A stretch of DNA of 64,000 bases from Psammoneis japonica (Eukaryota). The position numbers were made by a program, and so were the translations under genes. Shown in pieces: positions 4,100 to 57,649 of the stretch; positions within the stretch are counted from its first letter, which is position 1, and the number at the start of each line of letters is the position of its first letter. The notes beneath the pieces are model-generated. The model ran no database searches. It saw only the letters and a list, made by a program, of their open reading frames with translations, and was not told the origin of the DNA. The DNA is taken from contig QPGO01000024.1 in the NCBI GenBank assembly GCA_008632985.1, forward strand, positions 1 through 64,000, written 5' to 3'.

Positions 4100-5660
4100 C
4101 ATGACATGCTGTGTGTCAACTCTTGGTGTCGGTGGCATGGCGCTGTGACTCTCCCGGCACTGTAGCTGTGCTCATATTTGGGGAAATAGCATGATTTTCT
4201 GAATTTCACTGTGGTGAAAATTGACAAGCACGCAACAAGCATGGTGGTGCACCAGGGTTTTGTTTCCTTGTCGCCCTCCTCGATGCAGCCTTGTTGGTGT
4301 GCACATCAAAGGCCAAATGTGCACCTTGGTGTGGAGCATGTTTTTGAGCACAGGACAAGCTGCCATCATGGGCAGATTGTCTGCACAAACCATTTTTGTC
4401 ACTTTGAACATGGGGGGCACTGTAAAAGGGTGCCCCTTTTCTTTGACACTTTGTGGCTGTTTCTGAGAGTGCACTTGCGGCGGGAAATGGCAACCACACA
4501 CGCAACTTCTTGCACTGTCATTTCACTTGCAAAAATTCTCTTGCTGTTGTTAAGCGAAACAGTGCATTGTCTCTCTCAGTTTGGCCAGAGTTTGAGAAGA
4601 GGAGCTTGGTCCCCAGTTTCCAGTCTCTTTTGTCTGTCGCTTGAGTTGTCGTCAAAGATTGACAAAAGTGCTGAACAGCAACCTCCACCTCACTGCTGGG
4701 GTGCTGCTGGGGCACCATTCACACAATGGCCCTGTGTGTGCAAAAGAGAACACCCCCAGAGAGAGAGACATGTTTGTTTTGGGCAGCCAAAGGAGGAGAG
4801 GTTGTTGTGGTGGCAGGTTCACAAGAAAGCCGGCTGTCTTTGGGTTGATCAAGCTGCATCATTTTTGTCAGCAAGTGCCACACCATGTTGTGTGTGCAGA
4901 AGGCTTGCAGCTCTGTGCACACAGCGTTGCAGAGAAAACTCTCAGCACTGCTGCACAAGTTTTTTGGCTGTGTTGTGCATGATGTGATTTTTGCAAATTC
5001 CCTCAACCTGAATGCTGATGCACATGTGCATGTAGTGCAGCACATTTTACACAACAACCAGCAGCCCACACAACTGTCAGCAAACACAGCAGGGGCAAAA
5101 GTTGTTGGCTCACTGAGAGAGAGGCAGGCCTCTGCTCCTGCCTCCTGCATCTGATTCAACCACCAGCACACGAGCCAATGGCACCGATGAAGTGAACAAA
5201 CACTGATGCAGTAGAAAGGACAAGCCAACACCTTCTTGTGGATAAGAGTGAGTGTAACAAAGCCAACGTGAACCCAATCGTTGCGCCTTGGTGCATGAGA
5301 TGCAGGCCTCTGCTCCTGCCTCCTGTGTCTGACTCAACCAGCACACGAGCCAATGGCACCGATGAAGTGAACAAACACTGATGCAGTAGAAAGGACAAGC
5401 CAACACCTTCTTGTGGATAAGAGTGAGTGTAATGAAGCCAACGTGAACCCAGTCGTTGCGCCATGGTGCATGAGATGCAGGCCTCTGCTCCTGCCTCCTG
5501 TGTCTGACTCAACCAGCACACGAGCCAATGGCACCGATGAAGTGAACAAACACTGATGCAGTAGAAAGGACAAGCCAACACCTTCTTGTGGATAAGAGTG
5601 AGTGTAATAAAGCCAACGTGAACCTAATCGTTGCGCCTTGGTGCATGAGATGCACCAACA
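4100..5660. mobile_element. Degenerate repeat/transposon-derived block, strongly TpA- and CpG-depleted; family not identifiable
   Basis: Abrupt compositional switch between two normal genes; all frames are Cys/His-rich and Tyr-poor; ends in a 175-bp tandem array. Boundaries are approximate. Confidence 0.6.
5124..5654. repeat. Tandem repeat, three copies of a ~175-bp unit
   Basis: gcaggcctctgctcctgcctcctg starts at 5124, 5302 and 5477; copies are nearly identical. Confidence 0.97.
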
Positions 5661-16437: not shown

Positions 16438-16599
16438 AGAAACGCTCGTTTCGCCTAGGTTAGGTTTGCAACGAAAATCAGAATTGCATTCTTAGTTATC
16501 TGCATACAGGATGCTTTGCTTGATTCTCTCTTCATTCTCTTTTATTTAGATTGGCTAATCAAGTCTGTGGAACTACCGAAAGCTGGGGTAGACACCTGT

Positions 16600-19500
16600 T
16601 TCCCTCGTGAGATCGATGCTGTGGGTTTGGTTTTAAGAATCAAATGAGAGCATTTTTAACGCCAGTCGCACCAACAGCTTGACGATCGGTTTTGCGGACC
16701 ACCATGACTCTTTTTGCCAACAGGAAAGATGCAAAAAGTTGGCTCTGAACTTGCATCGAGCAATGCAAGAAACTCTCCACTGGCACTGGTGATGCAGGCA
16801 CTGACGATGCAAAAGCGGCCCAAGATGCCGCTTCGACTGGCGCTCTAGCTCCAAGCAGCTGGGATTCGACAAAAGGGCAGCCACGACTTTCTGGCAGTGT
16901 CAGACTGCAACCAGCCCTCTCTCTCTAGAAGGATGACTCTGTCTTGAGCCATTTCATGTGTAATGCAAAGAAAGGTTGCAAAGAAAAGGGCACTGGCGGA
17001 ACATTGCACAGTTGTGGCTGTGGCTCCACAATTGGCAAGTGACATGTTCACCTCAACCACTGCACTCCCTTTGCTTTGCCCGCATTGCAAAACCACACAA
17101 TGGTTTTAAAACCATGCCTGACATTGAAAACATGTTGGCATCAACTCTTTGAGGTGCATGTTCATTGCCATGCTCTGTCATGGCTGATCACCATCATCTC
17201 TCATCTCCGCACCACTTTGCCAGAGGTGACATGATTGCAGCAAGAAAAGGCAGAGACAAACCTCTGAAGAAAGATTTCATGTCCACCAAACAAAGCAAGT
17301 GTCACTCTTTTTCTGCATCATCCATCATCTGCATGAAGCATCTGCTGACTTGTCATGTGGTGGCCACCAGTGTGGCTGCAAAATGTCATGCTGTGAGAAT
17401 GGAAAGACCCACGAGTGGAAACTGTGCAGGGCTGCCCAAACTCTGTCATTGCATTGTGGCCATGTGTGAGTCCAAAATGAGGATGGGCAAATGCATTGAG
17501 CCAGTTGTTGCATTTAAGCACACAGCAGAGAAAACATTTCCACAACACAGAGAGAAAAAATCAAGCAACAAAGCTTTTGATTGTCTCAGTTCTGCACAGA
17601 ACACATGAAGCAATTGTTTTTGTGGCAGATCTCAAAGTTTGCCAAGTGCAACAAACATGAACAAAAGAGATGGGCTTGCCAATCTGCTGGCCCCTCAATG
17701 GGATGCTCTCCTCCTTTCTTGATTGTCAGTGCAGTGCATCATGCACATCTCTGCAATCAAGCAGGGAGCTGACAAATGCTGTTGAGACATGCACAAAACA
17801 TGCCCTCTGACTGAAAAAACAAAATTCTGTTCACAATGGTGGGGGCTTGGTGCCACACAAACAGGCAGCTGCTTTTTGCAAGGTTCACAAGAATGTGACA
17901 TAAAACCATTGCTGTGCTTGGTGCAAGAGACAAGCGTTCATGCTTCCCTTCCTTGTGGTGTGCTGCAAGTGCTTTTAAAATGCACAACTTTGTCTGTTCT
18001 CAGTGCAAAGCTGTCAAAGCGGCAAGTCAATGTTGCAAAAGGAGGGAGTCCCATTGGTCAGTCACAACAATGGCTGTGGGTTGAAAGTGGTGTTGCTGCA
18101 AACTGTGAATTTGTGTGACAACATGTGCCTGCCAATGCTGAGTGACAAATCATGCAAACCAAATGATTTGCTCCAAAGAGTGAGATGAAACTGAAAGGTG
18201 AGAGATTGCTGACAGTGAAACCTCACTTGTCAAGAGTTGCAAAATGAGCTGCATCATTGGCCACTGCATCTTTTCTTCAACACGTCCAGGTTCTTCACAT
18301 TTCCCACAACCTGGATGCTGTTCCAACAAAAGCATCAAGAAAATTGTGCACACTGCACAAAGCAGCGGAAATTTCACTTGTGCAATGCAGAAGCAGTGCA
18401 CACAGCTGCAAGAAGCCCCCCAGTTGTTGGAGTTTTGCAGCTTGCTAGCCAGCATGCATTTGGTGTCACCAATCCTGAGCTTGCTGTGTGGCTTGCAAAC
18501 ACATTTCTCCAATGCCACATCTGCTTTTGCAATGTCAACCAGGTGCAGAAGGCAAAAGGTCAAAGGGAGCACAAGACCCACAACTCAACCCAAGTTGAGA
18601 ACACAAATCCACCATGTTGTCCACAATCATCAGCACATCTTACACTGCAATGTCAAATGTCCATCCTGCAGAAACTGCCTCTCACCACAATGCACCAACA
18701 CACTCCTTTGCACAAGTCATCAATTGGTTGGCCTCAGGAGGCACATCAAGAAGCATGATGGGAGGATGACACTTGGAAACCATGCCATCCAAATCCACAT
18801 TGACTGTTGTTCTGTCAACTCCTGTGGCCTGCATCACAAGATGACTCTGCCAACAAATGACCACCATTGCTGTTGAGCAAAGCACAACCCCATTTCACAT
18901 GCCCAACCTTGCAACATTTCCATGGTTTGATCTGCTTTTTATCATTCTGCACAAAGCTTGCACTCTCAGGGTTTTTGTTGAAACCACAAGTGTCCAACAC
19001 ATGCAGTGCTGTTGCTGCTCCTTCAATCTTGTGACAAAGGCCTTTGCACAGTTTCCCACAATTGTGTTGAATGCCCTTGCCTTCTGTGTCTTGTAGAATG
19101 TGATCTGTTCACACATGGTGATCACATTGCTTGCCCCAGATTGTCTTGTCCTTCTTCAATGTGGCATCTCCCAATGGACACTCTGGCTCTTTTGGCATGC
19201 TCTCCTGCCTCAGAGATGCCAGCACCTGCATCTCTAGCCCAAACATTTTTCCAACACACTGGTTGATCTTCTTCATGGTTTCTGTGCAACCATCTGCCTG
19301 TGAACCCAACTCAGCAATGGCATCATGCACCCACTCCTTTGAATCGTTTGTGCTTCTGCATCTGGCTTTGTCCTTGAGATTGTTTCTTTGCCCTTGTCCA
19401 CCAACCCAAGTCATGAATGCAAATCTGTCACAAAGTCCACAGTCATCAGTGCATCATGCACTGCAACATTGTCTGTCTGTCCTGCAAAAACTGCCTCTCA

Positions 19501-22500
19501 CCAAAATGTTCCAACAGCACCTCTTGAGCCACAGCAACCTCAATCTTTTCTTTCATCAGCTGCACATTGCATGCAGATGAGTCAAGAGTGAGTTTTTGCT
19601 TGTGGTTTGTTCCCTTTTCTCATTGCCACACCCACATGGCTTCTTTGGCACTGCAGTGGTGATGACTTGTGTGGCTGCCACTGGTGGCTCCACCGCACTG
19701 TCTGGTGCTTCAGCATTGGTCACTGCCCCCAATTCCTCCTCTTTTCAGAGCAGCTCAGCTGTGTAGACTCCTGTCCACCTTTTCTCCAGTTCCTTTTTTT
19801 TTGGAGAAGGGCTGGCTCTGGCCATCTTAGAGGACTCCCGTCCCCATTTGGTTGGCACAACTCTCAAAGCAGCAAGGCAGTGTCTGATCTGATCTTGCCT
19901 CTGATGACACTGCCATGGCAGCTGGATTGTTTAAAGTTGGCAAACAGTCTGGCAAATGCCACTCCAGCACTTCCCACATGCATCCTTGTTGCTCAAAATG
20001 GTGCTCAGCTCTCCCTGCTGTGGCCCATCTGAGTGCTGTGCTGCTCAAGCAAAGCTTGTCATTGGCAAGGCAATTCTGTTGGCTTGGGTGCACACCTCAC
20101 CTTCCTCTGCTGTGGCAGCCACTTGGTCTGACTCTGTCATTGTGGCAGCCTCTGGTCCAAGAGTTGCGGCCACCAGTGCCACCCATGTTGTCTTGCCAAA
20201 GTTGTGGAGTGCAACACGCCCATGCTGAATGCTGGCTCTGGGACATGCTGTGCCTCCATCATCTGCTTCTCCTTGTTGTCTGCCAGCCATGTCATTCATG
20301 CATGACTCATGTCATTCTTTCAGTTCTCTAAAGCTGTCAGACTCTTTCAGTGATGCCTTTGTTGCGTGCACTTTGACAAGACCCAAGCCCTTTCTTGGCT
20401 GCCAGCAGTTCACAGCACCACCCTGGCTGCAGACATCAGCTGCCTTTTGGCTTTGTTTGCAGGCTCTGTCTTTGGCAGTCATGTGGTCCTTGCCCAGAGC
20501 ACTGTGAAGGTGACTTGCGAGTTCCATCCAACCTTTTGGAGGCCCAGGCAAGTGCAAAGATCTGGTGCACTCACCCTCAAATGAGGCCTGAGTGTGCCAG
20601 CTGTTCAGTGTGTGACTTCATCAAATCAGTGATGCAGAGCACTGCAGCCATGCCAGCATCACACATCACACCAATCAGATCCCATCTGCATTGCGCAAGT
20701 GAAAAAATGGATTGGTGCTCTCATGACCAATCTTTTGTTGGCGCTTCACACCCAGAAAAAAGCCATTGCTCTGCAGAAGTCAATGGCAATTTGGTGCTGA
20801 GCTCAGCCAAGACTTTTCTGTCTCCTCAACAGCAATCCCCAACCTCACATTCATGACTGCAGCATTGGTGCAACAAAGTGAATTGGAAGAAACAACTCCT
20901 GTTGTTGTCTCTGCTGAAAGAGGCCCGCGACAATGCTCCAAGTGCTTTCAGCGACAAAAATTGTGGAGTCAACCTTCACCACTTTCCAACAGGCTCAAGA
21001 AGTGCTGGGACTGTAAAACTTCATTGTTTGAGACCAATTTGTTGTTGGGCCAAGTGTGGGTGACTTTCTGAGACTGCCTCATAAAAAAAGCTGACACCAT
21101 CCACCATTTTACTCCAAAAAATGACTGCCTCAACCAAAAGCAAAGTTTGTTGAGGTGGAGTCTGGCTCACATGTGGTTGAGCACAGTGGCAACAAAGAGT
21201 CACTGCAAGGTGTGCTAAAAGAGGTGGGGCTGCCCCCCCCCCCAGCTGCAAAAAAGTGTGCATGGAAAAGATTCCATGTTTTGTGAGTTGCCTGGCATCT
21301 GTGCAGCACAAAGATCATCAATGGCAAGATGTTGAGCAGTGGGAACATGACAACACACACAAACAGCAGTCTTTCTCATCTCACTCTTTTCTTGCAGGGA
21401 GAAACAGGTGATGGCCTCATGCAAAAGGGGGGAAGACCAAAACTTGCTGAGGGTTGGGTTGAAAACAGGCAGCTGCCAAAAATTGTTTCAGAAAGTGTTT
21501 TGAAAGGTGCTCATTCTTGCCACGTCTGTGTGCTGTGCATTGACACCAGTTTTGTGCCAAATGGATGAAGTGTCACTTCTGAATGGAAGCTCCACAACCA
21601 GTCAATTGGCAACAACTGCATGTGTGCTTGCAGGCTCTGTCATTTGCAATCTTCTTTCGCTGGATCAAGATGAGTCTAAGTGCTGCAAGTGCAGGATTGT
21701 CAGTTTGGCCAACATTGCTGTCAAAGCTTTCAGAGCACATGGGGGGCTGGTTCTTCACCAGGTGCAAGAATTGCAGTCAGGATGATTGCCATGTGTTGCT
21801 GGAAGCAACAGCCAGAATTGTTTGGACTTAAAGAAGAACCTGTCATCTGCACACCAGCCAAGAAGCTGTTTGAGTTGAGTGAACAACCCAGGCCACTTGC
21901 ACACTTCATGATGGCAAAAAAAGCAGTGCTGCCATTGGCAATCTCAGCAAAGAAAGAATGACTCAATGGTGGGCAAAGCCTTTTGAAGTGGAGCCCAACT
22001 CATGTGCAGTTGAGCACAACAATGACAAAGAGGAGCCATTGCAAGGAAGACTTAAAGTGGTGCTCCCAGCTGCAAAAAAGGTGAGCAAAGAAAATTCCAT
22101 GCAGCTCCAAGCTGAGAAGGAGTCTTGTCCAGAGCTGCTTGGCATCTGCACAAAGAGTTTCCATTTGCACTGTGTGAGCAAAACAGCAAAGTGTGCAAGG
22201 CTGAACACACAATTGTCTGCTGTCCATGCACTCTTTGGTGAGGTCTGCAAGTGCACCCTTGCCCACCATCTTTTGTGCACCATTGTTGTTGATCATTTTG
22301 TTGAACCATGACCAACATGAGAAAGTGCCGCTTGTTCTTGTTTTGTGCTCTTTCCCTGTTGTGTGCAAAGGATGATGGCTGCAGAAGGGACAGCCAAAAT
22401 CACCAAAGGCAAGATTGAAGACAGCACAAAATTGTCTCTAGAGCATTGGAAGGTGCTCATTCTCACTGCAGGGTGCAAAAAAAGTTTCTGGGAGAGAAAC

Positions 22501-23890
22501 ACCATAAAGAAGGGAGAAGCCACTTTTCTGACAATTTTGCAGTTGCTTGGTCTGGTGAAGCAAGATGCTTTGCATTGCAACATGCCATTGACAGCACTGC
22601 CAAAGCAACCAGCAATGGGCACAATGTGTGTGCTGCAAATGTGCACCAACAGCCTCCACACACCCAAGAGCAGCATTTTAATGTGAAGGTGTGGTGACAG
22701 ATCTGTCATTTTTGTCACAAAAGTCTCTTGAACTTGCCCTTGGAATGCTCCAAAGAAGCAAAAACTGCTGGCTGTCCAGAGCAACTCATTGTCAAACTTG
22801 TCAAAAGCATGGCTTTGCTCCAGTCTGCAACTTTGCACATGAAGGGTGTGTGTGCAGTGCAAAACTCCATTTTTTGTCTTTTGGTGTGCAGGGCGGGGGC
22901 TTCATTGATGGTGGCACTGTGCCACAAAACACAAAAAGTTGCACATTGCAGAGAAAAAGTTGCAGCACTGTTGTCAAGCAACTGGCTGCATGGCATTTTT
23001 CATGCTTTGCAATTTTCCCTCTGAGAAAAGAACTTCAAGTTTGATGTGTCATGCCAGATGCACACAAAAAGCTGCAAAACGTTTCAGAAATCTGAGCTGG
23101 AAAGCACCCCCAACTGACTTTGTGCTTGTTTGCACTCCTCATTTTTGCCAATCACCAGCTGCAAGAAGGTGTTGCTCAAAACAGTCTGCTGGGCATGGCA
23201 GCACATCATGGGCAGGTGAGGCATTCTTCCACCAGCTCAACATGCTGGTGTTCAGCTCCCCGCAATGCATTGCTGGTGACTCTGCAGAAGTTGAAAAGTC
23301 TGGCATCCTTTGAGAATTTTTCTCAATGCTTCGAGCCATCTGCCCCAAGCACAGATGATGATGCACCATGGGCTGGACAACTGCCAAAAAAGTTCTTGTC
23401 ATTCTCCAGGGCACAACACAGAGAAGAACACCAAGCATGAGCTGCTCTGGGGGAGACCTTGGATTCCTGTTGCACATCAGATTGATGGAAAATCCAAGGG
23501 GCAAACCTCAGCAGCCAATGACTTCTCATCAAGGTTGAAGTTGCCACCCCAAAACCACAGCATGGCTTGAGCACATGCAGTGCATGGCAAAGGAGGGAGG
23601 CTGCAATCACGAGTTGCTTGCCAAGGAGGAAGATGCTGTCAAACACTGTTTCTTCCAGCACTTTTTGTTTTTGGTCTTGTGAGTTTGAGTGGCTTGTGCA
23701 TGTCAAGCCCAAAAACAGGACAGATGGACAAGTGGCAAATCGGGCTGTTTTTTTTTTGCTGTGTGCACAACATTTGGTGAAATCAACCTCACTTGCCAAA
23801 GTCAGCAGTTGTCTCTCAATGACATTTGACATCATTGATGACACTGCTGTGATGATCCTCATTGCCTCTCAATGAATTCAGCAGGGCTGT
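16600..23890. mobile_element. Patchwork of heavily mutated transposon remnants (TpA/CpG-depleted)
   Basis: Almost no TA or CG dinucleotides and no credible host ORF. Contains a gag-like fragment, a diverged internal duplication (~18570 vs ~19400) and a possible Copia RT fragment (MNLPLE...IVKLVKSM near 22730-22830). Confidence 0.7.
18880..19400 (-). mobile_element. Ty1/copia-like gag fragment with degenerate CCHC knuckle
   Basis: ETMKKINQCVGKMFGLEMQVL...KEPECP...KTIWGKQCDHHV / KARAFNTIVGNC..AFVTRL / PWKCCKVGHVKWGC resemble the gag of diatom Copia elements once C/H are read back to Y. Confidence 0.5.
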
Positions 23891-23891
23891 C

Positions 23892-24270
23892 TGCAGCGTG
23901 CATTGTCAAGCAGGAAGAAGCACACATGTTCACAACTGCACATTGTTGCACGCATCCATTGCACCACAATCATGGGTGCATGCAAAGGACAGACAAATCA
24001 CACAGATTTGATCAGATGTCAAAAACTGCAAATGCCATCAATCAATGATATTGACACAAAATTTGTCAGTGCTTGTTGCACTGCAATCAGATTTTCTGAA
24101 TGGCCTTTGGAGCAAACGGCACACTTTGGGCCATTGAGAGCTCCTTCAGAGAAATCCAAAATTGCAGCACAAAATCCAATCTCATGGTTTTCTGCTTTTT
24201 GTGATTTGCTCCTCCACTTTCATTTGCACTCATTCTTCAAGCATGGTGCATTGTGTGTGTGCACCACAGA
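23892..24270 (+). repeat. 5' LTR of the gypsy element
   Basis: Aligns by eye with 28582-28990 (shared ttgcaccacaatcatgg, gcaaaggacaga, caatcaatga, gagagctcctt, aaatccaatctca, ttcttcaagca). Confidence 0.85.
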
Positions 24271-27200
24271 AGGCAAAAACACAAAATTGAAGCTTTCACC
24301 TCATGCAACTGATGCCAAGTCTTCTGTCAAGTGAGGGACAATTGTTCTGGTGCCCCTGAAAATGATTTCCAAGCCAAAGTTGCTCAAGTGAACCCAGTGC
24401 CTCAAGATGGAGCAATGTTTTCATCCTGAAGACAAGAAGAGTTGCACCCACACAATCAATGTCAAGCACTGCAACCAGCAGGGAGTCTGCTCCAAGTGTG
24501 TGTCAAATTCTTGAAGACTTGCCGTTGATGCTTGGTTGGCCAGAACATGCAAAAGCAAGCAAACAAGTTCCATCTGATGCAATCAATGTTGAGTGCCACA
24601 ACAAGCAGGGAGTTTTCAAGTGAATCAAATTTTTGAAGACTTGCTGTCAACTTTTGGTTGGACAAAATGTCCAGAAGCAAGCCAACAAGTTCCATCTGAT
24701 GCACATGTTGTTGCAGGGAGATGCTCTCCAAGTTTTTGAGAACAAGGCTGCAAAAACACATTTGCTTCGAAGAGGCAAAGAAGCCTTTGAAAAATGCCTG
24801 TGTTGCCTTTCCAACCATGTTTCCCCCCAAAGAATGCACTTCAAAGTCAGAAACGGCATCTGTGACATGATCTCAAGAAGCCACTGGAGACTGTGAAGAT
24901 CTGCAAAGCTGCCACTTGGACTCAGGAAGGAATGAACAAATGCTCAAAGTTCCACCCTCTTTTTGTGCCAAAGCAAAATCTGGAGGATGAAGATGGTGCT
25001 GTCAGTCAAGCTCACAAGGCTTTAAAATCTTGGATCACACTTTTGACAAGTTGGTTGAGTTCTTGGAGTGTCTGGAAGTTGCTGAGGACACATTTGACTG
25101 GATCAGTGATGTCAAATCTGATCACAACAGCAAGGCTGGGTCAAAGTCAAAGATGGACCTAATTGCGGCTCCAAAAATGGTTGCCAATCTGGTGCCAAAC
25201 ATTCTGATTCTAAGATGTGGTTCAACCATTGCACATGGGCCACTCACAAATGTTGGGTTGATGGAAGACTGGCAAACTGATGCTGAGAGAACTTTGAACA
25301 AAACCCAAAACAGCAATGTTCAAATGGCAATTGCAGGTGGTCTTGCATTGTGGTGCTAAAAATGCCTTTCCAAAGGAAGAGTGGAATGTCATGATCACTC
25401 AGCCAGTCAACAAAATCCTCAAGACAAGTTTCTTGACATGTGACAAAAAGCACAAGGGCAAAAATTCTGACTGTGATGCACTTGGCAAAGAAAACTTCCA
25501 ATTCGAGTGCATGTGATGCACAGTTGTTCTGAAAAATGACCAGCTTCTGTTGAGGAGTCTTGCACATTGCTGGATGTCAGCAAGCCCAGAAAAAGGCCAA
25601 AGCAACTCACACAGGTCCAGCAGTCATTGCTCACATGAACCCCTCTTTGAGAAAAGAGAGGGGTGAGATCCTGCATGTTCTTCTTGATGGTGAAACATCA
25701 TCAACTGCAATTTTGTGCAAATTCACATGGAAATTGAGAACCAAAGAATCCGCCACCAAGATTTGGAAAACCAAGGGTGGACTCTTTGCAACTGACAGCA
25801 AATGCAAAATGCAGTTCTTGTCACCTGAATTTGACAAGCACAAGCACATTGACAAGATGGCACATGCTCATGGCAAGCCCTCTTCTTCATGTTGATGTGA
25901 TGTGATCATGGGACACAACCTGATGAGCAGTCTTGGAATCACACTCAGCTTCACAAATGTGATTGGAAGATGCCACTGCACCAATGAAGAATGTCGGTGC
26001 TTTCTTTGATGCTGATGTCTTCAAGCTGATTGCCAACCACATTGAAGAGTCTGGTGCTGTGAATGGCCTCAATGGCAGGACCAACAGCACCAGGATCCTT
26101 GATGCCAACTGTCATGTTGCCAACCTCAATGATGTGACTGTTGGCCACAGAGACACATCTCACCCCAGGAGAACAGAAGCAACTGAACTCTCTTTTTAAA
26201 AGATTTGAAAAGCTTTTTCACAGTTCCTCAGGTGTGTGGAAAGGAAAACCAGCAGATCTCATGTTCAAATTGGGCATGACTCCACACAATTTGGAGCCAT
26301 TTCCCACACCACAAGCCTTGGAGGCAACTGCTTGAAAGGAAGCAGACCAACTCTATGAGACAGGAGTCTCAAAGAAAAACAATGGACTGCTCTGAATGGG
26401 CAGCTCCAACCTTTGTTCAACCCAGGAAAAATGGTCAAGTTCAGTTCCCACCCAACTTCTAAAGAGCTGAGAGGGAGGCTGGTGTGCACTTCACACACCC
26501 TTTGCCCAATGTTTGGGATGCACTGCAGAAACTGGAAGGTTTCATGCATGTGACCTCATTTGATTTGACCACAAGATGCTGTCACATCAAGCTGACATGG
26601 GGTGCATGTCATTTGTGCATGATGGTGATGCAACGGGGCAAATGTGAATGTTGCGAACTCCTTGTGAGAATTTCCCCCATCATTTTTCAAGAACACATGG
26701 GCAAACTCATGGCAGGTTTAGAGTTTGTCAAAACTTGCTATGTTGATGTCATGCTGTGCCTGACAAAAGGTGACTTCAAAGATCAACTCCAGAAACTTGA
26801 GGAGACATTCACATGGCTCAAACAAACCAGTTTGAAGGTCAGTGCCAAGAAGTCCTTTTCAGCTGAGCATGATGCAGACTGTCCAGGCTTTCATGTCACC
26901 TAAAATGGTGTTGCGCCACCCCCCATGAAAGTGAGGGCAATTCAAGCAGCCCAACTGCAACTCCCAAAACTCACAAGGAGCTGCAATGTTTCATTTGTGT
27001 GGTCAATTGTTGTCAAGACATGTGGCCTCAACAATCTCATGCACTTGCTCTCCTCTTGCCAAACTCACCCAAACAAAGGTTGAGTGGCAATGGATGAGCA
27101 TGAAACAAAAAGCCTTCAACAATGTGAAGTGAGTTGTGTCAAAGGATGTGTCATCATCACACCCAAATTTTGACAAACTCTTTGAGCAGTGTGCCAGGAG

Positions 27201-28581
27201 AGAAAAAAATTCTGAATTGGGAGCAGTCACATCACAAAACAATCAACCTGTTGCTTTCCACAGCTGCAGGTTAAATGGGGTGCAGACATGACACAACACA
27301 ACAGAAAAAACTTCTGCCCATCTTAGAACACTTGAAGGGTTCCACAACTCACTGTTGCCAACAGACAAAAATGTTTGTGGATGACAAAAACCTCACTCAC
27401 AAAAATTTTGCTGTGAACCCAGTCATGCATTGTCATCTGACAATCAAAGAACACAGTCCTAAAATGACCCATCTCAAGGGCACAAGGACAATCTCATTGC
27501 AGATGCAACCAGCTGACTTGCTGTGAAAAACACAGAACCCATGGAAAACCTGAGCAGGGAAGAACCAGATGAGAAGTCACACCAAAATCCTGCAACATTG
27601 TCTTCCATCAATGAAGACACCCTCTTCAAATTGTTGGACAAAACACATCACATGAAGACTTTTCCTGGATGCAAGTGAGATTGAATGCTTGCATGTCACA
27701 AGGACAAAATCACTGGACCAAAGACATTGCAAAAGACAGCAACAGATTGGGGTCATGGTGCACCTTCTGCACCCTGGCACAAACAACGGAGCTGAAAAGA
27801 GGCAATCTCACAACACCTGTGGTGGTCCACCTCACATGAAGACACAAGGAAATGCACATAAAAATGTGAGACATGCAAGCAATTCAAGAAGAAAAAACAT
27901 GCAGACATTTGCCTCCCAAGTGCTCAGAATCAGTGCCACAGAAAAGACCATGTGTGGATCTTGCCAGACCATGCAAAATGCATTGTGAAAGGGCAGAAAG
28001 AATCTGGTGGTCCTCAAATGTTTGACAATGATTGATCCAGCAACAGAACAGTTTGAAACAGCAGAAATCCCAAACAAGGAATCCTTGGCCATTGTTGAAA
28101 GCAGGTGCCTTTGGCCATGGTTGATTGCTTGTGACCATGGAAGTGAGTTCATTGGACACCAATTCAGAGCTGTGGTTGAAGATGACTGTGGCATTGAATG
28201 CAAGCCCACATGCATCCATCAAGTGCTGGGAAACATGCTGTGTGCATGTGATTTACAAAACGCACCCCCAGATGTAGAGGATCCACTCTCTCATGTCATG
28301 CCACAGTGCAAGCTGCACCGTGCCAATTGGTCTTCAACGGAGACATGACATTTGTCATCCAACATGTTGCTGACTGGAAATTTGTCCAGAGACAAAAACA
28401 GGAGATGACAAATGAAAACAGCACTTGAGAAAATGCTCAATGCACTCAATGCCTGCAGGGCAGGAGAAAAGACATTGCTCAAGAAAGACTCTCAAAAGTT
28501 GTGACAGCCCTGTGCTGGGCCTGTCTGTCAAATGGTGCCATTTAAGGACAAGTGGCTCTAACGTGCAATTGGGGAAGCAAA

Positions 28582-28990
28582 TTCAGCACACATTGTTGAG
28601 CAGGAAATGACACACACACATTCACAATTGTGTGTTGTTGGCACGTCAATTGCACCACAATCATGGATGCGTGCAAAGGACAGATCAATCAATCAGATTT
28701 GATCAGCCAGATGTTGAAAACCAGCTCTTGCAAATGAGGTCAATCAATGATGTTGACACACGAGGCATCAATGCTCACCACATTTGGGCAATCTGCCATC
28801 ACAACTGGATTCTCTGAACTGCCTTCAGCTGCAGAGACAGCACACAAATGCTTTGGGCCACTGAGAGCTCCTTTGGAGAAACCTGAAATTGCAGTGTGAA
28901 AAATCCAATCTCACAATTTTTCATTCTTGGCATTTGTTCTGCTTGCTTCATTTGCACCCATTTTTCTTCAAGCACAGTGCATGTCCATCC
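28582..28990 (+). repeat. 3' LTR of the gypsy element, preceded by a purine-rich tract
   Basis: Direct repeat of 23892-24270; ggggaagcaaa at 28571-28581 sits at the polypurine-tract position. Confidence 0.85.
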
Positions 28991-30132
28991 TGTGCCCAGT
29001 GCAATCTGTGGCACAGAGCTGTGAAGCAAGTGCTCTCACATGTGCACCCATGTGATCAACTCACTCTGCTGCTGCTGCTGCTGCTGCAAATTTTGCCACC
29101 TCGCCAGCCCACAAGGACACAACTCACAAAAAATGAGGTCAACACAAAGCACAAAAGCAAAAGAGACAGTCAAACTGATCCTCAGAACTCTGTCCAATGA
29201 AGTGGCACCTGAGTTTTGGGGTGCAGTGCCAAGCATCAAACTCTTGTCAACAGCCCCTCAATGTCGTTTGTGACATGGCCAAGCTTCACCTGATCTGGCT
29301 GAGCACTGCAATTGACGTGGATGCAAGTTCTCCATCTGACACGCTCTTCAGTGCTGCAAGAAGGGTTTGGCCCAGTCGTTTTCCAAAACATGGGTGATGC
29401 CAGTGACAAGCTCAGTGGCTTGTTGGCAACCCAGAATGTGGCAGTCCATGGAGTGCAGCCATTGACCAACTCAAGTCAAAAGACAGTGATCATGGAAACA
29501 TCTCAGCCCAAAGCTGGCTGGAAGGGAGTGTGGGTGGCTTCATTGGCACCAGAGTGATGAGTGACGTGACAGGAAGGGCAACAACCCTTGCAGCCCCCCC
29601 CCAGTGAGAAGGCAGTGCTGGTCTGTCCTCGTGCAAATGCCAGATTTGGTCAAGCTTGACAGCATCCATGCACATTTTGAGACTCAATGCCAACTTCCCA
29701 TGATGCTGGGATGTCCTTTGTGGACGTTGGACCGGGGCGCAGATGCGACTAAAATCACTCGCGCAAATTACAAATTGAAGCGCGTAGGAGAGCATGGAAA
29801 AGCTGAGACCTGATGATGCGGTCAGCGCCGCACTTTCAACTTGGGGTCATTGTGATTGTAACTCTCTGGAAAATGAATGAGCTCCATGGCTTGGTGGTTT
29901 TCTCAGCGTCGCTTGTACAGCAACTTAACTCTGAGCAGGGGCGCTTGCCATCAAACCACGTCGGAGTTCGTCGAGTGCGAGCTAGCAATCAAGTCGTCTG
30001 GAACGCATTTCGATCTGGTGGGAATTTGCCTCACACATCATTGATGAAACACCACAGGAGAGCGGCGCTAACTCTCCTTCGATACCCCCAGTTACCTTCA
30101 AGGTTATAGACAGTAGCGGAGTAGAACGTCGA

Positions 30133-50449: not shown

Positions 50450-52690
50450 TTGGGACTCTTTCGTCCAAGAAGAAGGCTTTGCTCAAGGTTGCCCTCTTGG
50501 CCCCATCTTCGCCAGCCTTGTCCTCTTGCTTGTCCTTCATCTGTCAATCAAGAACTCCGTGAACGCATCCCCGGCCGCTCTCCTGCTTCCGTCGGCTCCT
50601 GCGTTGATGGTGCCCACGCTTTCTTCCCTCACTCTGTTCTCCCATGGTTCTTCGAACGTTTCTCCACTCTTGGCACCCCCTGCGGCATCACCCTCCTCAA
50701 CCTCTGTAAAACTAAGATTCTCACATCCATCACTGGTGTCAGTCCCATTTCCCACCCTTCCTCCTTCCCGGGCGGATCCTCTCCGCGCCGCTCTCTCCCA
50801 TCTCAGCAACCCTGCGAATGATCCTTCCTGCACCTCGGAACTCACCTCCGGTGTCTGCTTCCTTGGTCAACCCCTGGGCTCCCAAGACTTTGCTGACTCC
50901 TTCCTCTCTGCCACCTCTTCCACCCTCTCCAACAAAGTCGGCATGCTTCTCACCCGCCTCCATGACAAGCAAGCTCAAGCACAGCTCTTCAAACACTGTT
51001 TCGCTCCTTCCTCCACTCACCTGCTTGGCACTGACTTCCACCACAACCTCAACCCTGACAACCCTCCTGATCCCTTCCTTGGGACCTCCTCCTTCCAAGA
51101 CTCTCTTGTCACCACCACTCATCGATTTCTCCACTGCGCTGCCTCCCATGCCGCTCCTCTTCCCGGCCATTCTCTTGCCATTGCCTTCCTTCCTGCTTCG
51201 CTCGGAAGCTTTGGCCTTCAAGACCCAACAGCTGCCGCTGTTCCATCATTTATGGTCTCTCTTCTTTGCTCCTTCTGTTTTGCATTCCATGGTGTCCAGC
51301 TGCCATCAGGTGTCGCCGTCGCTCTTCCTCGCAGCTTTCGGCTTTCTTTGTCTTCTTGGCACAATCCCCACTCGATGCTGTGTCTCTGCCTGATCTTTTG
51401 CTGCTGCGCTCCTGTTCTTGCCTCTGCTTCCACTCTTTCTGCCTCCTCTCTGACCACTCTGGTTAAGTCGGCTGCCCTTCCTGGCCTGGCCCACGATCTC
51501 CATCATGACCATCAACAGCAAGTCATCACTTCTGCTCTTGTCAATGCTCCCTCCAACAATCAAGTCTCCCCACCCTCACTGCTGTCTCCACTTGCTGGCC
51601 TTCCTCTTCATCCCCATTTCCATTGCTTCAAGAGTTCCTGCCTTGCTTCTGATGCCTGCATCATTGCCACTCAGCACAAGCTCTGTCTTCCCATCCTTCC
51701 CTCCTCTCTTGTCAACACACCCTGTCCCTGTGGCCATGCCACCCTTGATGTGCCTGTGGTGATCACGCCTTCTCCTGCAGTTGTGCTCACAAATCCAAGC
51801 TTTCCAATGGCCTCCAAGACACCCTCTTCATTGTCGCCCAGACCTTGGGACCCCCCGCCCAGCTCTGTCATTCTTCCAATGACGTGCACCTCAATCCCAC
51901 AAATCTGCTCCCTGCCTGTGCCCACTCCACCCTGCCAATGTCAGCATTTCCATCCTGCCTCCCGCCTCTCTCTCTCTCTCTCTCAGCTCCTTCCCACCAT
52001 CACTGTGTTGCAGTTGATGCAGCCATGCCCCAAGATCCCTCTTGCTCTCCTCCTGGTCTGCCTGCCCCCTCTTCCCCCACATTGACTGAGGCACACTGTT
52101 CAAGCCCGAGATTGAAGTTTCTTGGCCCTTCCGCTCCCTCCACTGATGAACCTCCAGTTGTTGCTTCTTTCAATGCCAATGGCATCTTTCTCCTCCCTTT
52201 TGCCATTGATCACCTTGGCGTTCTTGGATTCTTCACTCACCGGCTCCTTTTTGGCTCCACATTTTCCTCCGTCTGCTCTCAACCCAAGCCTCCCTGGTCC
52301 TCTTCACCCAACCTTCACCACTCAAATGTTCCTGCTCTGCCTTCCTCTGTGCCCTGTCATCTCCATCTTCCCTTCTCCCATCTGCTGACTTTGCCAGGTG
52401 CGGCCTGCCCACCAAGTGCCTCGGCAGCACATGTTGCACCGCCTCTCCTTCTCAATGGGCTGTCCACACCCTCAGATGCAACATTGTTCTCCACCTCTCC
52501 ATGCATGCTCTCTGCTTTGCCTCCTCTCTCCCTGCCCCCTCCTCTCCCATTCCCTCTGCCAAACACCCCACGTCCTGCATTTTGCACCCACTTCACACTC
52601 TGCCATCACTGCAGCTGCTTCCATGCCTCCTTCTGCTGTTCCTTTCCACTCTGCACAGGCTCTTTAACTCTGCATGCCAGTGTAAATTGA
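50450..52690 (+). mobile_element. 5'-truncated non-LTR retrotransposon of the RLE (CRE/R2-like) type, degenerate
   Basis: FVQEEGFAQGCPLGPIF (RT QGxPL), SCVDG (YxDD site), KTKIL, GVCFLGQPLGSQDF, LPASLGSFGLQD, CPCG..LD..GDH.F.C knuckle, and FLLPFAIDHLGVLG (restriction-like endonuclease end). Confidence 0.85.
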
Positions 52691-53929
52691 CCTGTTCTCA
52701 ACACCAAGATTGGATGATGATGGCATCATCACAAACCGATTCCATGGCAGCAATGCCCCACTTTCTGGTTTGTCTTTGAGACCTCGTGACAGCTGTGTTT
52801 GACCTCTTCATGACATGAACAGGCTGAGCAATCCATGAATGCTCATTTACAAGCCGCACTCTTCTATTTTCAGATTTGACATTTGTGTCTTTGCGGTCAA
52901 TCTAGAGCACATGCAGGCCAGGGAGGAGCCAAATTCACTGACATTTGTTGCTCTGTAGAATGACATCATCAGAACAATTTTGTCAATGTTGTTTGACTCT
53001 GCTTTTTCCTTAAACCACACACCAACTTCATTCTTCATTTTCACTCTCATCCACCCAACTTTGTCCAACTCAGGAGCACTTGGCTGAGTGCATTGCAGTC
53101 GCTTTGTTCTTCAAAAACATTTGTCTGTTCAACGCCATTGATCAAACAGGTTTGATGATGTGATGATGATGTTGGATTTGTCAATGTGCTCATGCTGGGA
53201 AAGACAACAAAAGAGCTGACTGCAGCAGTGGCAAGAAAGTTCAGTCAGACAGCAAGCAACACGTTCCAGATGCAGGTGGGAATCCGTGTGACATTGCTGG
53301 GCCCGCAGAATTCTGCATGCAAGCTCTGCAGCAAAATTGTCAGGTGATTAACATGTCAATGATTGCCAACAGAAAATGAGGCAATTTTGCGAATGCACAA
53401 ACTCGTCCATGATTGAAGCACATCATTTTTTACTTGGCCAGGTGCACTCTTCAGACATTGAAGAATGTGCCTGGTGCATTGATGTTCCCATGATTTTGCC
53501 AAATAAAACATCTGGGGCTTTGCAAAACAGCAAGTCTAGAACATTTTTTTTGGAAGATCACACATGGAAATGCACACGCGAAACATGCAACAGATGACAA
53601 AAAACAATTGTGTCACACATCAGCACTGCAAGCTCCCACCCAGCATCAGAGCGGGGAGCAATTCACCCGGGGGCCGCCTTTGATTTTTATTGTGGGTTTT
53701 GGGTTCATTGCATTTGGGGCTCAGCCACATTGCAATGAATGAAGCAACACCCATGTGCTCAATTTTTAATTTGGTTCCTTCATTGATGCTGTGGGTCAAT
53801 CACAGACAATTCTGCTGCTGTTTCATTTTTCATTCGCCCTCCCCCAATGCATCAGTGCTCCTTGCTGTTCATTTTTAATGCACCCATTCTTTTGATTCCA
53901 CTTGTTTTCAATTCGCCAATGTGTTGCGC

Positions 53930-56100
53930 CAAACATTTAAACTGCTGCCTGTTGTGGTGCGTCCGCCACCCACAAATCCATGTCTTTGATGTTCTCCTCT
54001 TCATTGTCTCCTGCTTCCAACTGTTTGCTGTCATTGTCTTGGGTCTCTTCTGTCCTGTCCATGCACTCCCAGAACTTTCTCAACCAAACTTTGTTGCACT
54101 CATCAGCATGTTTGCTCAATCTCTTTTTGTCAATTGCACTTCCCAGTTTTTTGCATCTGTCCAGTCCCTTCTTGTTCCAACCCTGTTGACCCTTTTGCAC
54201 TTGACTTGTTTGATTGCCGTGCTTCTTGCTGCCTTTGCTGCACTTTGCCTCCGGAATGCGCCCCGCCTTCTTTTCCACCTTCAACTCCTCCTTTGTTTTG
54301 TTGTCATGCATGTGCACCCACTTGCTTGTCCCAATTGTTCTCTGACACCAGCAGGCCAAACGCTTCATTGCTCGCAGATGCCANGAGGCGGGCATGCATG
54401 AAGGCTGCAACGGCCAAACCAATGCTAGTCACTCTAGAACAGCAATGGAGACTTGTTACCCCAATGAAATAAAATCTACTTTCCCATGATAAATGGCAAA
54501 GCTAGTTCTTCCTATTGGCGTAAACTCTCTAGCTGGCCCACTGTACTTTTGAGGCTTGGTTCGCTGTTTGTGCACGGTGCACTGGCTTTCACCCTCAAAA
54601 TTTATTGTATTGGCTGACAATGCAGGCAAATGAGTCACATATTTCTAGTTTGTAAACTACCTTATAGAATAAAGAAACAATCCACCCCTTCATAATTGCC
54701 ATGGTGCGTTTCTCTGTCGAATAAAACTCCGCATCACCTTCTGGATGCACGTCAAATGCGCGGCAAAATTGCTCGACGACAAATCTGAGCTGTTAAGAGC
54801 TTGAACATCTTCAGACACCACAGACCCAAGCTTCTTTATTTATCATGAAGTCATCCTGATGCTGCACCTGTGACTTGGACTTGTCGTCAGACTGCCGTGG
54901 CCGTTGCAAGGTAGAAGTGACATTCAAAGCAAGCATTTCTCTCTCAGGGATGGCTCATGGCAAGGGAGACCCTACAGAACAAAACAACAATGAGGAAAGA
55001 CAACATGTGTGTAAGTTGAAAGAATTTGAACGTATAAGTGCTCAACGAAATGCACAGCATGAATGGTGATGCATAAGTTGCGTGTTGATGCAACAAAAGC
55101 GGCGGTGTCAACACCAATCTTCAGNNNNNNNNNNNNNNNNNNNNNNNNNNNNNNNNNNNNNNNNNNNNNNNNNNNNNNNNNNNNNNNNNNNNNNNNNNNN
55201 NNNNNNNNNNNNNNNNNNNNNNNNNNNNNNNNNNNNNNNNNNNNNNNNNNNNNNNNNNNNNNNNNNNNNNNNNNNNNNNNNNNNNNNNNNNNNNNNNNNN
55301 NNNNNNNNNNNNNNNNNNNNNNNNNNNNNNNNNNNNNNNNNNNNNNNNNNNNNNNNNNNNNNNNNNNNNNNNNNNNNNNNNNNNNNNNNNNNNNNNNNNN
55401 NNNNNNNNNNNNNNNNNNNNNNNNNNNNNNNNNNNNNNNNNNNNNNNNNNNNNNNNNNNNNNNNNNNNNNNNNNNNNNNNNNNNNNNNNNNNNNNNNNNN
55501 NNNNNNNNNATTGTTCTCTGCACCAGCAGGCCAAACGCTTCATTGCTCGCAGATGCCAACCTGTTCAAGCAACATCTTGATTTGAGCCAATGCTTCCACA
55601 TTCTCTTTCCCACCACCATTGGCAGGAAGTGAAGGATGAAGTGGCTGTGGGCATCCATGTCATCTCTCACCTTTAGCATGTTGTCCAGTGAAGGCATCTC
55701 TGCACTTGCATCCACTTGTGTGTTTCTCTTGTTGTGATCAATGTGCCCTGTTCACTCATGCAACACAAAGCAACAATGTGTGAGTGTCGCTGCATTGTCC
55801 CACAACCTCTGCCATCCATTTTGATGCAGTGCTTGTGGAAGAACTCTTTCTTAAGTTCCCCACACATGTTGTTCCTCTTTCTTGTTGTCTGCCTTTGCAC
55901 CTTGTCCTTTGACAAATTCTAGAATTGAGCTCTTTTTTCTTGGGGCACGTTGATTTGGTGAGCACAATGTCAGCCACTCTGCCATCGCAATTTTTTGTGG
56001 CCTTTTTGTTCAGGAACTTGCATTGTCTGAACAATGCATTCTTGCAGAAGTTGTCCAAAACAATCTTGTCCCTGTTGTCAATTTGTTCATTGCGTTGCTT
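53930..56100 (-). pseudogene. Degenerate accessory ORF of a large DNA transposon, split by an insert and an assembly gap
   Basis: LFRQCKFL...RKRNN..., FLPMVVGKRMWK...ASASNEAFGLLV, then EAKCS...QGWNKKGLDRCKKL. This resembles the SDEAF.LL...KYT...GW...G..RY..L pattern I associate with ORFs accompanying Plavaka-like elements. Confidence 0.5.
55125..55509. other. Assembly gap (N run)
   Basis: Run of N bases. Confidence 1.
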
Positions 56101-57649
56101 CTTCCTTCTTTTCTGCTGGTCATGTCATCTTCTGTGCCGGATGAGGTCACAGTCCCACCTGTCACAACTGATCCACCTCCTCCTGTTTGCATCACAGTTC
56201 TCACCGGCACATCCTCCTGTGTTGCGGCCAACCCATCCTGTCCCTGTTCCCACTGCAACAAGCAACAATTTTGGTGAGTCATCTTCAATCACCACTTGTG
56301 TTGCTCCGACATCTCTTGCCTCATTTCTCTGCGGGCTTTGGAATGGTGCACTCGCTTCCCTTGGGCTTGGCATGGCGGAGCATGCATTTTGACCAGTTTG
56401 CAAAAAAGTGACATTGTTCACATGCCGCATTGCAAATCATCCAGCACTGGGCCCCACGACGGTCCACTGATGCACCTGCCACTTGTGTGCATGTTGCCAT
56501 GCATTCCTGTGTCTGCTTTCTCTGTTCAAAAATCTGGCACGGATTCTCATTGGTCAGATTCATCTAAATGTTTTGCAGGTTCACAGGAAAGCATGTGTGA
56601 TGCATGTGGTTTGTGCGATGATGCACTCGAACAACTCCCAGCATCTGTCCCCCACCTCACCATGGTGTGTTCGTGCTGGTCCCTGCCAAAAAACATGAAC
56701 TCTGTTTTCAACAGACATCACATTCCCAATTTGCTCTCCACCCCAGAGCCAATGTCCACACATGCACAGCAAATGCACAAACACACAACAACGTCTCCTG
56801 TCAGATCCTGTTTGCCATTCTGGGCTGGCCTGGTTTGCAATGGGATCAACGACCATGAGCTCCAGGCGCCCTTCAAGCCATTCCCATGTGCCTCATTCCA
56901 ATCGGGGGATGGGTTGCCTGCAACACCAATGCACCCACTCTCTCACAGTTTTGACATGTGACCAGTCTCCCTCTTTGCATCCTGGCCTCACTTGCAACAT
57001 TTTGGCACTTTGTCCCCAATTCTTCCTGGTTGAATTGTCTGTCACATGCACCGGGGTGAGAAAGGATGCAATCGTTGTCCCCTCCCCAAATGAGATGCAC
57101 CAAGTTGTCTCACTCCTTCCCCCGTTTTGTGCAGTCATCAACCACATGTTCTCCATCTTTGTGTGTTGAGAACATCCTTGTCAATGGCAGGCAGGCTGGA
57201 TGGATTGTTTTTGCACTGGCAGCTCCTGCATCCTCATGTCACAAATTGCTGATGGTGAGTGGGAATGTGCCTTGTTGCTTCCACATGCCTGCACAGGTCT
57301 GCAAGTGTCTCCATGCTGCTGCCAACATGAATGGTTTCTTCTTTGCCCACAAGATTCATCAGCACAAATTTCAGTGCCCGTTCACACACCATTGTCCTGT
57401 CTCTTTCTTTGCTGCATTGACAAGATGTTGTCAAGTTTTGTGTTTGCATGTCCTGCCGGCATCTGCTGCATGTCAAAGAATGGTTGGGAATTTCCGCTGA
57501 CACATGTGATTCCCCACTCATGACTTGGATCTTCAATTCACTGATGTGGATGATGGAGCCCACACAAATCCATTGCCTCTCACCCGGATTCTGCCACCTT
57601 GACCACAATGACATCCACACCTTCAATGATGGCCTGGTAAATTCTCACC

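Follow-up and report, generated by a model that had tools for sequence, protein, structure and literature searches.

Introduction

The closest described counterpart of the process considered here comes from the chlorarachniophyte alga Bigelowiella natans. In mutation-accumulation lines of this rhizarian, 231 of 302 nuclear mutations fell within two integrated viral regions, and 230 of those 231 were A>G or T>C changes, all of them on TpA steps (Mettrop et al., bioRxiv 10.64898/2026.01.13.699255). The rate there was approximately 1000-fold above background, the mutations appeared in only some of the lines, and the long-term footprint consists of clusters depleted of TpA and enriched in CpA+TpG, with reverse transcriptase (RT) and DDE domains enriched among low-TpA coding sequences. 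An ADAT2-like DNA adenine deaminase was proposed, not shown, to be responsible, and the accessible text makes no mention of diatoms, CpG or trinucleotides (bioRxiv 10.64898/2026.01.13.699255). Here we analyze a 64,000-nucleotide stretch of the Psammoneis japonica genome (GenBank assembly GCA_008632985.1, contig QPGO01000024.1, positions 1 to 64,000 of the forward strand; hereafter the window), in which islands of transposon-derived and repetitive DNA have been almost completely erased of TpA and, less uniformly, of CpG. These diatom islands are a near-saturated diatom case of the recently described TpA hypermutation, overlaid with CpG decay.

Fungal repeat-induced point mutation (RIP), together with its basidiomycete TCG variant, also introduces irreversible, context-specific transitions that inactivate selfish DNA in place and leave sharply bounded islands. 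The chemistry of the outcome differs, however. RIP converts C:G to T:A, typically CpA to TpA, making TpA and lowering G+C, whereas the islands of the window lose TpA, end up with CpA/TpG and keep their G+C, and the polarised A:T changes are mostly A:T->G:C. RIP is set off by sequence duplication at a premeiotic stage and uses a RID-type methyltransferase-like enzyme; diatom DNMT4 is described as related to RID, with a function that is not known, in the accessible part of a diatom methylation study (PMC9998398). Our literature searches turned up no account of diatom hypermutation that erases TpA; in the accessible portion of a Phaeodactylum mutation-accumulation paper a GC->AT bias is reported and the terms ‘TpA’ and ‘transposable’ are absent (PMC6604790). 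The author of an initial annotation of the window, made from its letters alone and without searches, knew of no described system bearing this signature, a view overtaken by the TpA-only hypermutation of Bigelowiella (bioRxiv 10.64898/2026.01.13.699255).

Three islands are erased of TpA and CpG

We delimited three blocks with a two-state hidden Markov model (HMM) over pyrimidine-purine (YpR) steps, and computed observed/expected ratios (O/E) in 1-kb bins. The main island, block 2 (16892..29721, no strand), fills the gap between an Hsp70-family gene and a gene with a tRNA-intron-endonuclease domain, and its right boundary, at ~29700, is sharp. It contains 44 TA, 57 CG, 1544 CA and 1451 TG steps, where the density of the flanks would predict ~526 TA (Poisson P = 9e-164) and ~745 CG (P = 4e-237). 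TpA is reduced ~12-fold (O/E ~0.05), CG has an O/E of ~0.08 and CpA/TpG is doubled, such that TA or CG makes up 3.3% of YpR steps in block 2 versus 41% in the flanks. Block 3 (50852..63505, no strand) is a patchy island in which TA is almost gone throughout and CG loss is partial; a Pfam scan recognized a coding family in none of its open reading frames (ORFs). Block 1 (4190..5589, no strand) is a small, less complete island with 11 TA, 23 CG, 156 CA and 165 TG. Across the blocks, TA O/E is 0.00-0.12, rising to 0.14-0.40 in edge, gap and block-1 bins, with CG O/E at 0.02-0.5 and mean CA/TG O/E at 1.7-2.0. The genic flanks have values of ~0.5-0.85, ~0.8-1.3 and ~1.0-1.25 for the same three measures.

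As an observation, the TA/CG-erased islands are confirmed as real and extreme. The hand counts of the initial annotation proved exact (1 TA and 2 CG in the 600 nt of 17161-17760; 14 TA and 18 CG in the 300 nt of 15301-15600), and the limits it gave for the islands, 4.1-5.7, 16.6-29.75 and 50.45-63.7 kb, lie close to the HMM blocks together with the margins of TA-only loss described below.

The share of YpR steps is the same inside and outside the islands (0.241 in blocks, 0.240 in flanks), as is, in essence, G+C (0.465 and 0.48). With both quantities constant, transitions within YpR steps alone can produce the whole pattern. The order of CA and TG along the blocks is random, with lag autocorrelations of ~-0.04 to +0.08 in the three large blocks and variance ratios of ~0.8-1.3, and it is more random than in the genic flanks. 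Strand-coordinated tracts, hinted at by a run of former Tyr sites reading His, seven Cys and two His, were ruled out by this lack of autocorrelation in the CA/TG series.

The islands resemble the hypermutable regions of Bigelowiella in several respects. Both show TpA->TpG/CpA transitions on both strands of chromosomal DNA, for which an adenine deaminase is proposed, and the blocks lie far beyond the cut-offs given in the accessible preprint text (Rho TpA <= 0.43, Rho CpA+TpG >= 1.52). Selfish or foreign DNA is affected, and the adjacent host genes here keep normal TA and CG. The hosts differ, one being a rhizarian chlorarachniophyte and the other a stramenopile diatom, and so does the affected DNA, which consists of giant-virus and virophage insertions there and of a Ty3/gypsy retrotransposon and unclassified repeats here. 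TA loss is near saturation in the diatom, whereas a Rho of 0.45 is given for the region of nucleocytoplasmic large DNA virus origin in Bigelowiella. Further, CpG loss is superimposed here, and de novo events were seen there whereas only the lasting footprint is available here.

A degraded retrotransposon gives the direction of change

Block 2 contains a degraded Ty3/gypsy-type long terminal repeat (LTR) retrotransposon (23894..28982, + strand), whose 5089 bases hold 19 TA, 21 CG, 624 CA and 545 TG. It is bounded by a 5' LTR-like arm (23894..24251, +) and a 3' LTR-like arm (28584..28982, +), direct repeats of one another that share 70% nucleotide identity and 84.5% identity in purine/pyrimidine code. 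Between the arms lies a frameshifted pol remnant (25449..28522, +), for which the order RT, RNase H, integrase is taken from an intact relative, P0122. The longest open RT piece (26463..26900, +) matches Pfam RVT_1 at E = 3.9e-6 and its best relative at E = 2.4e-22 with 47% identity. This weak RVT_1 hit is the sole transposon match among the 195 stop-to-stop ORFs of the blocks scanned with Pfam (85 + 68 + 42). P0122 itself is an intact protein of 1004 aa with an RVT_1-RNase H-integrase architecture, and it aligns piecewise over 25743-28440 with a summed E of 1.35e-78. Its domain order and alignment, together with the flanking direct repeats, identify the region of 23.9-29.0 kb as a degraded Ty3/gypsy-type element.

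For outgroups we used 78 metagenome loci encoding intact relatives with 55-66% identity to P0122, one of them being P0122’s own contig. These were drawn from the best 80 of 582 metagenome matches, among which hypermutated relatives, if any, would not rank. In all 78 relatives TA O/E reaches 0.60 or more, with a median of 0.79; the median CG O/E is 0.96 and the median palindromic share 0.46. A single one of 1191 1-kb windows in these loci falls below a TA O/E of 0.3 (positions 751-1750 of locus L001), and it is a mild dip rather than the signature of the islands. Since TA is normal in the relatives, the retrotransposon family is not natively TA-free.

Polarised against these relatives, the substitutions are concentrated at TpA. 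At 11 conserved Tyr columns the window reads TGY (Cys) seven times, CAY (His) three times and TAT (Tyr) once, and Phe (11/12), Trp (5/6) and Pro (15/19) are largely kept where they are conserved. Arg is conserved at 13 columns, and there the window has Gln six times, His, Trp and Cys once each, another residue three times and Arg once. Of the transitions inferred at conserved amino-acid columns, 24 lie on TA, 17 on CG and 25 elsewhere. The nucleotide-level comparison covered 804 positions for which 10 or more loci were available and at least 80% of them agreed. Among the 19 TpA steps conserved there, 16 show a transition (A>G 11, T>C 5; Fisher p = 1.6e-5), compared with 0-18% in every other context represented by 18 or more sites. 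Of 38 TpA base-sites, 3 bear a transversion, and second place among the classes is nominally taken by A>G at ApA (8/44).

The initial annotation had postulated a second process, besides CpG decay, that turns TpA into CpA/TpG on both strands, and the conversion of 10 of 11 Tyr codons and of 16 of 19 TpA steps bears this out. Two of the outcomes that it had listed as speaking against such a process were not found: the intact relatives are not TpA-free, with normal TA in all 78 metagenome loci, and in the one element polarised TA->CA/TG changes do exceed other transitions, at 16/19 of TpA steps against the 0-18% seen elsewhere.

The island sequence recurs in public sequencing data

One public DNA run, X1, contains 81% of the sampled words of 14600-22600, a stretch for which no RNA run was listed and on which runs X2 and X3 placed no contigs. 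Logan contigs of X1 carry the same TA-free island sequence, with a word depth of ~45-55 over its single-copy parts, as in the neighboring gene, and two of these contig pieces, 339 and 391 bases long, match the island at every base. The run possibly comes from the same sample as the assembly, and we regard this agreement as weak to modest independent support for the sequence.

These data bear on two mundane explanations, namely that modified bases were misread by the sequencer or assembler, or that the islands have a native composition free of TA and CG. X1 has no recorded platform and may be the assembly’s own data, which leaves room for an artefact, and a repeat at 18.07-19.67 kb with near-identical TA-free paralogues is what a native composition would give. 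Taken together, we nonetheless consider the two very improbable. X1 contigs carry the island at full single-copy depth, and strand-dependent misreading would give long TG-only or CA-only tracts, of which none are seen. Against native composition stand the normal TA of all 78 intact relatives, which conserve the Tyr residues that are Cys or His in the window, and the shattered reading frames of the element, with 48 stops in one frame of 24252-28583.

The window and X1 are not identical throughout. Single-copy pieces of the island differ at 26 of 2457 bases and the Hsp70 gene at 4 of 1697, a roughly fourfold higher divergence in the island. The differences include five adjacent TG/CA swaps as well as TA/TG or CA/CG polymorphisms (17315, 18929, 19634). 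This higher divergence, in which the direction of change is not polarised, hints at a recent or ongoing process.

TpA loss and CpG loss are separable

TA depletion by itself starts further to the left than the HMM blocks, at ~16620 for block 2 and ~50450 for block 3. The left margin of block 2 (16620..16891, no strand) has 3 TA where ~11 are expected and 13 CG where ~16 are expected, and that of block 3 (50450..50851, no strand) has 2 TA (~16 expected) and 21 CG (~23 expected). Within block 3, the sub-region 60905..63006 (no strand) retains 85 CG of ~122 expected and only 7 TA of ~86 expected. In total, TA is gone without CG loss over ~2.8 kb. Because TA is lost and CG largely kept in 60905-63006, the two depletions are separable. 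We read the TA half, on the strength of these sequence counts, as probably the work of a distinct process that reaches further or acts faster than CG loss.

The CG half would most simply be ordinary decay of methylated CpG, diatom transposons being described as CpG-methylated in the accessible part of the literature (PMC9998398). Decay of 5-methylcytosine matches the CG O/E of block 2, the 9 of 13 conserved Arg codons that are now CAN or TGN, and the 17 transitions at CG. It cannot remove TpA, however, it would alone lower G+C, and TA is lost here in places where CG persists. The presence of CpG->TpG/CpA changes in addition to the TpA change sets the islands apart from Bigelowiella, whose spectrum is almost solely A:T->G:C, and this separable component fits a second, superimposed process.

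Among the intact relatives, three loci (L017, L018 and L078) have a CpG O/E of 0.12-0.19 and a TpA O/E of 0.62-0.68; for L017 the values are CG 0.12 and TA 0.62. These are cases of CpG decay or of CpG-poor hosts, without the TpA process.

The co-localisation of CpG and TpA losses in the islands could also arise from a single chain of events akin to immunoglobulin somatic hypermutation, in which cytosine deamination leaves T:G or U:G mismatches at methylated CpG and a polymerase-eta-like enzyme, in error-prone patching of these, inserts wrong bases opposite T at WA motifs (TA + AA). The nominal second place of A>G at ApA among the polarised changes would agree with this. The separation of the two losses in 60905-63006 does not, TA being gone where CG is largely intact, and ApA/TpT O/E is not reduced in the blocks. 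The spectrum of polymerase eta includes many A>T and A>C changes, whereas the islands keep their YpR total and show few TpA transversions; the WA motif with mixed changes is thus not matched. In Bigelowiella, moreover, as far as the accessible preprint text goes, TpA mutations come with essentially no C>T. We find this account decidedly improbable.

The changes arose after insertion and duplication

The two LTR arms of a retrotransposon are identical at the moment of insertion. In the element of block 2, the arms are opposed, one with CA and the other with TG, at 18-20 of ~80-90 aligned YpR steps. Such a site needs two adjacent transitions, as left by a single ancestral TA or CG mutating separately in either arm. 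Pooling five duplicate pairs (the LTR arms and four others), 41 of 166 aligned YpR steps (25%) are CA/TG-discordant. Independent single transitions would give ~2%, and 25% is the value predicted for half-discordant conversion of an ancestor with 41-46% palindromic steps. A three-copy tandem repeat at 5119..5654 (+), with ~95% identity between copies, includes one site that reads CA in the first copy (5258-5259), TG in the second (5433-5434) and TA in the third (5608-5609).

CA/TG divergence after duplication, the equal involvement of both strands, and the occurrence of Tyr->Cys and Tyr->His changes in one element together argue for action on inserted chromosomal DNA. These comparisons indirectly support a TpA process that would act in situ, rather than on one strand of RNA or cDNA. 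The initial annotation had likewise placed the process on chromosomal DNA, and the divergence of LTR arms and tandem copies after duplication, along with the random CA/TG order, sustains that view.

Editing before integration, either by ADAR-like A-to-I changes on transposon RNA or by deamination of cDNA, would fit with the sole identified element being a retrotransposon, and ADARs favor a 5' U, as summarized in the Discussion of the Bigelowiella preprint. The APOBEC (cDNA) and ADAR (dsRNA) systems also have in common with the islands that bases are deaminated against selfish nucleic acids, ADAR types favoring 5' U/T. They act, however, on RNA or on single-stranded cDNA prior to integration and leave strand-asymmetric clusters, whereas here the strands are even and the changes follow insertion. 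LTR arms, like tandem copies, acquired their CA/TG differences from one another once they had formed, the strands are equally affected without tracts (1544 CA, 1451 TG), seven Tyr->Cys and three Tyr->His changes stand within one element, and the depletion spans whole islands with sharp edges and margins instead of single elements. We give editing before integration hardly any credence.

TpA is lost preferentially in a TAY context

The few TA steps left in the islands are unevenly distributed among flanking contexts. Of the 83 TAs left in the blocks, 1 stands in an RTAY context (ATAT, GTAC, ATAC), well below the share of 461 of 1469 counted in the flanks and the 26.6% of the relatives (p = 3e-10); another 46 stand in YTAR. 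Expressed as survival relative to flank density, 0.3% of RTAY, 7.6% of mixed contexts and 29% of YTAR remain. The favored target would therefore be 5'-TAY-3' on each strand with the A changing, which is 5'-RTA-3' on the other strand. The polarised sites fit this model, YTAY having become TG five times and CA once, and RTAY having become TG five times and CA four times. In block 2, the TGY/RCA share of CA/TG steps is 0.560 +/- 0.009, versus 0.509 for unbiased conversion. The CGs left in the blocks are rarest in TCG contexts. A flanking preference of TAY >> TAR appears from these counts to be new here, and it is not discussed in the accessible text of the Bigelowiella preprint.

GC-biased gene conversion was ruled out as a cause of the islands: it would be expected neither to act on TpA alone nor to favor RTAY, and the islands show no rise in G+C.

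Proposed mechanism

Going beyond the pattern, direction, context dependence and onset after insertion or duplication that are observed, we infer the deaminase chemistry, the targeting signal, the role of methylation, the defence function, the enzyme and any present-day activity. The transposon islands have probably undergone an in-place A:T->G:C process at TpA, likely adenine deamination, together with C:G->T:A decay at CpG. In such a mechanism, two context-specific transition processes would together turn the self-complementary YpR steps into CpA/TpG. The first would change A:T to G:C at TpA, on either strand independently and site by site, working best at 5'-TAY-3'. Its chemistry would most likely be an enzymatic deamination that turns adenine into hypoxanthine, a base read as G. 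The enzyme may be a polynucleotide adenosine deaminase akin to TadA/ADAT2 that is drawn to chromatin which is silenced or foreign. The second would change C:G to T:A at CpG, most simply through deamination of 5-methylcytosine, a route suggested by the CpG methylation of diatom transposons. The two would overlap in space without being identical, TA loss extending further and being complete where CG largely remains. The outcome is a loss of coding capacity, with Tyr changed to Cys or His and Arg to Gln, Cys, Trp or His, while G+C and the purine/pyrimidine skeleton stay as they were.

Several points weigh against this reading. The polarisation comes from a single element, with 11 Tyr columns and 19 TpA steps, and only 1 CpG is conserved at the nucleotide level, so that the direction of the CpG change is drawn mainly from Arg codons. 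The test of the YTAY prediction is small (5/6), the region of 60.9-63.5 kb shows no TGY/RCA excess (0.501), and the remaining TAs stand in A-rich contexts (A at +2 in 61%) and may be newly made rather than resistant. The sequencing run that carries the island has, as noted, no recorded platform and may come from the assembly’s own sample. Another difficulty is posed by a TA/CG-free repeat at 18071..19672 (no strand), which in 1602 bases has 5 TA and 3 CG and contains internal direct repeats at 18585-18708 and 19401-19525. In X1 it has several to ~24 paralogous copies of at least 90% identity, with a summed contig depth of 270-1335 versus ~55 for single-copy sequence and many internal-skip joints. 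Paralogues at least 90% identical are more alike than expected if independent conversion alone, which predicts ~10% divergence, had acted on them. This implies duplication after conversion, a natively TA-poor family, a conversion more deterministic than 50:50, or a family still spreading in TA-free form.

The chemistry also has a competitor, as the sequence fits deamination of A and modification of the paired T equally well. An adenine deaminase is our leading guess for the TpA process. A TET/JBP-type dioxygenase might instead attack the T of 5'-RTA-3' in silenced repeats, oxidizing it to 5-hydroxymethyluracil (5hmU) or 5-formyluracil, which would mispair with G and yield T->C. 5-Formyluracil would be the mutagenic species, and 5'-RTA-3' and 5'-TAY-3' are the same double-stranded site whichever base is attacked. 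We know of no 5hmU in diatoms, though no search was aimed at it. Dinoflagellates offer a parallel: a TET/JBP homologue makes 5hmU, mostly at repeat loci, and older work found T to be replaced preferentially in TA and TC, as described in the accessible parts of two sources (PMC11572971, PMC11071213). Those sources also relate that Marinov et al. saw no sequence preference for 5hmU in Breviolum, and the only direct precedent, Bigelowiella, favors the deaminase hypothesis, without proof. Thymine oxidation thus seems unlikely to us.

A wider scenario than the deaminase acting in these islands is conceivable, if on balance doubtful. An old genome-defence system, in its chemistry a mirror of fungal RIP, common to diatoms and chlorarachniophytes and extending across the SAR (stramenopile, alveolate and rhizarian) supergroup, would consist of a chromatin-guided, TadA/ADAT2-like DNA adenine deaminase that prefers 5'-TAY-3' and erases TpA in transposons and integrated viruses, with saturation reached in diatoms. 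ADAT2-like enzymes have U33-A34-C35 as their natural tRNA target, which has the same shape as TAY. Because the remaining CGs are poorest in TCG contexts, the same enzyme might perhaps deaminate cytosine at TCG too. If this were true, one 5'-T-preferring dual A/C deaminase, and not methylation decay, would erase both palindromic YpR steps.

Affected sequences and neighboring genes

The window is diatom nuclear DNA. For the Hsp70-family ORF, all best homologues that carry a species name are from diatoms, at identities of up to 64%. The genes around the islands have normal TA and CG and include, besides the Hsp70-family gene and the tRNA-intron-endonuclease-domain gene, Rieske, mitochondrial carrier, hydrolase and other genes. 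No deaminase was found among the window ORFs scanned with Pfam. An open frame of 1259 aa at 38441-42217 (- strand), in DNA of normal composition, matches no Pfam family at E <= 0.01.

Most of the block sequence has no assigned element class, the identified parts being the one Ty3/gypsy remnant and the one multi-copy repeat. The initial annotation had the process strike LTR, long interspersed nuclear element (LINE) and DNA transposons alike. The LTR part of this claim stands with the Ty3/gypsy element; no LINE was found in the window by Pfam among the 195 block ORFs, and a DNA transposon is represented by a lead without significant support. This lead is an ORF at 58440-59234 (+) whose nearest language-model neighbors are clusters of Plavaka (KDZ) transposases, at a score of 0.89. 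Pfam gave no Plavaka match, the KDZ-associated CxC6 cluster appearing only at E = 2.8, and of 255 near-length and 688 longer candidates none was homologous at E <= 0.01. A language-model atlas query with a neighboring ORF gave no usable match. The assignment as a Plavaka/KDZ transposase was therefore set aside for want of significant Pfam or homology support; were it real, a DNA transposon would be affected by the same process.

The claim that the process is restricted to repeats likewise held in part. The blocks contain a Ty3/gypsy remnant and a multi-copy repeat, and genes are spared. A tandem array at 34006-34530, lying between genes and made of ~60-bp units with copies 80-95% identical, is unaffected, with a TA O/E of 0.68 and a CG O/E of 0.81 in its 1-kb bin. 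Its near-normal TA and CG content indicates that being repeated in tandem in short units is not enough to draw the process.

Within block 3, a patch at 54385-55124 has normal TA and CG composition. It is bordered by one N (54384) and by a gap of 385 N (55125-55509), and the 50 bases at 54334-54383 recur right after the gap at 55510-55558 with 98% identity. The patch resembles a scaffolding join, or a small contig put in the wrong place, more than an insertion that escaped mutation.

Implications

A mutational defence that destroys TpA through A:T->G:C changes first came to light in 2026, in a preprint on a single rhizarian alga. That a diatom bears this signature too, carried nearly to completion over entire transposon islands, suggests that the system is widespread in the SAR supergroup, home of major ocean primary producers. 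The sharper motif described here, with TAY >> TAR and RTAY eliminated, is a criterion that any candidate enzyme must reproduce, and a natural context-specific DNA adenine deaminase would interest base-editing research. As the interplay with CpG decay leaves G+C unchanged, standard RIP indices and GC-based scans would miss such islands. The erasure also explains the near-absence of protein-domain matches in the islands, which makes it relevant to the annotation of repeats in diatom genomes.

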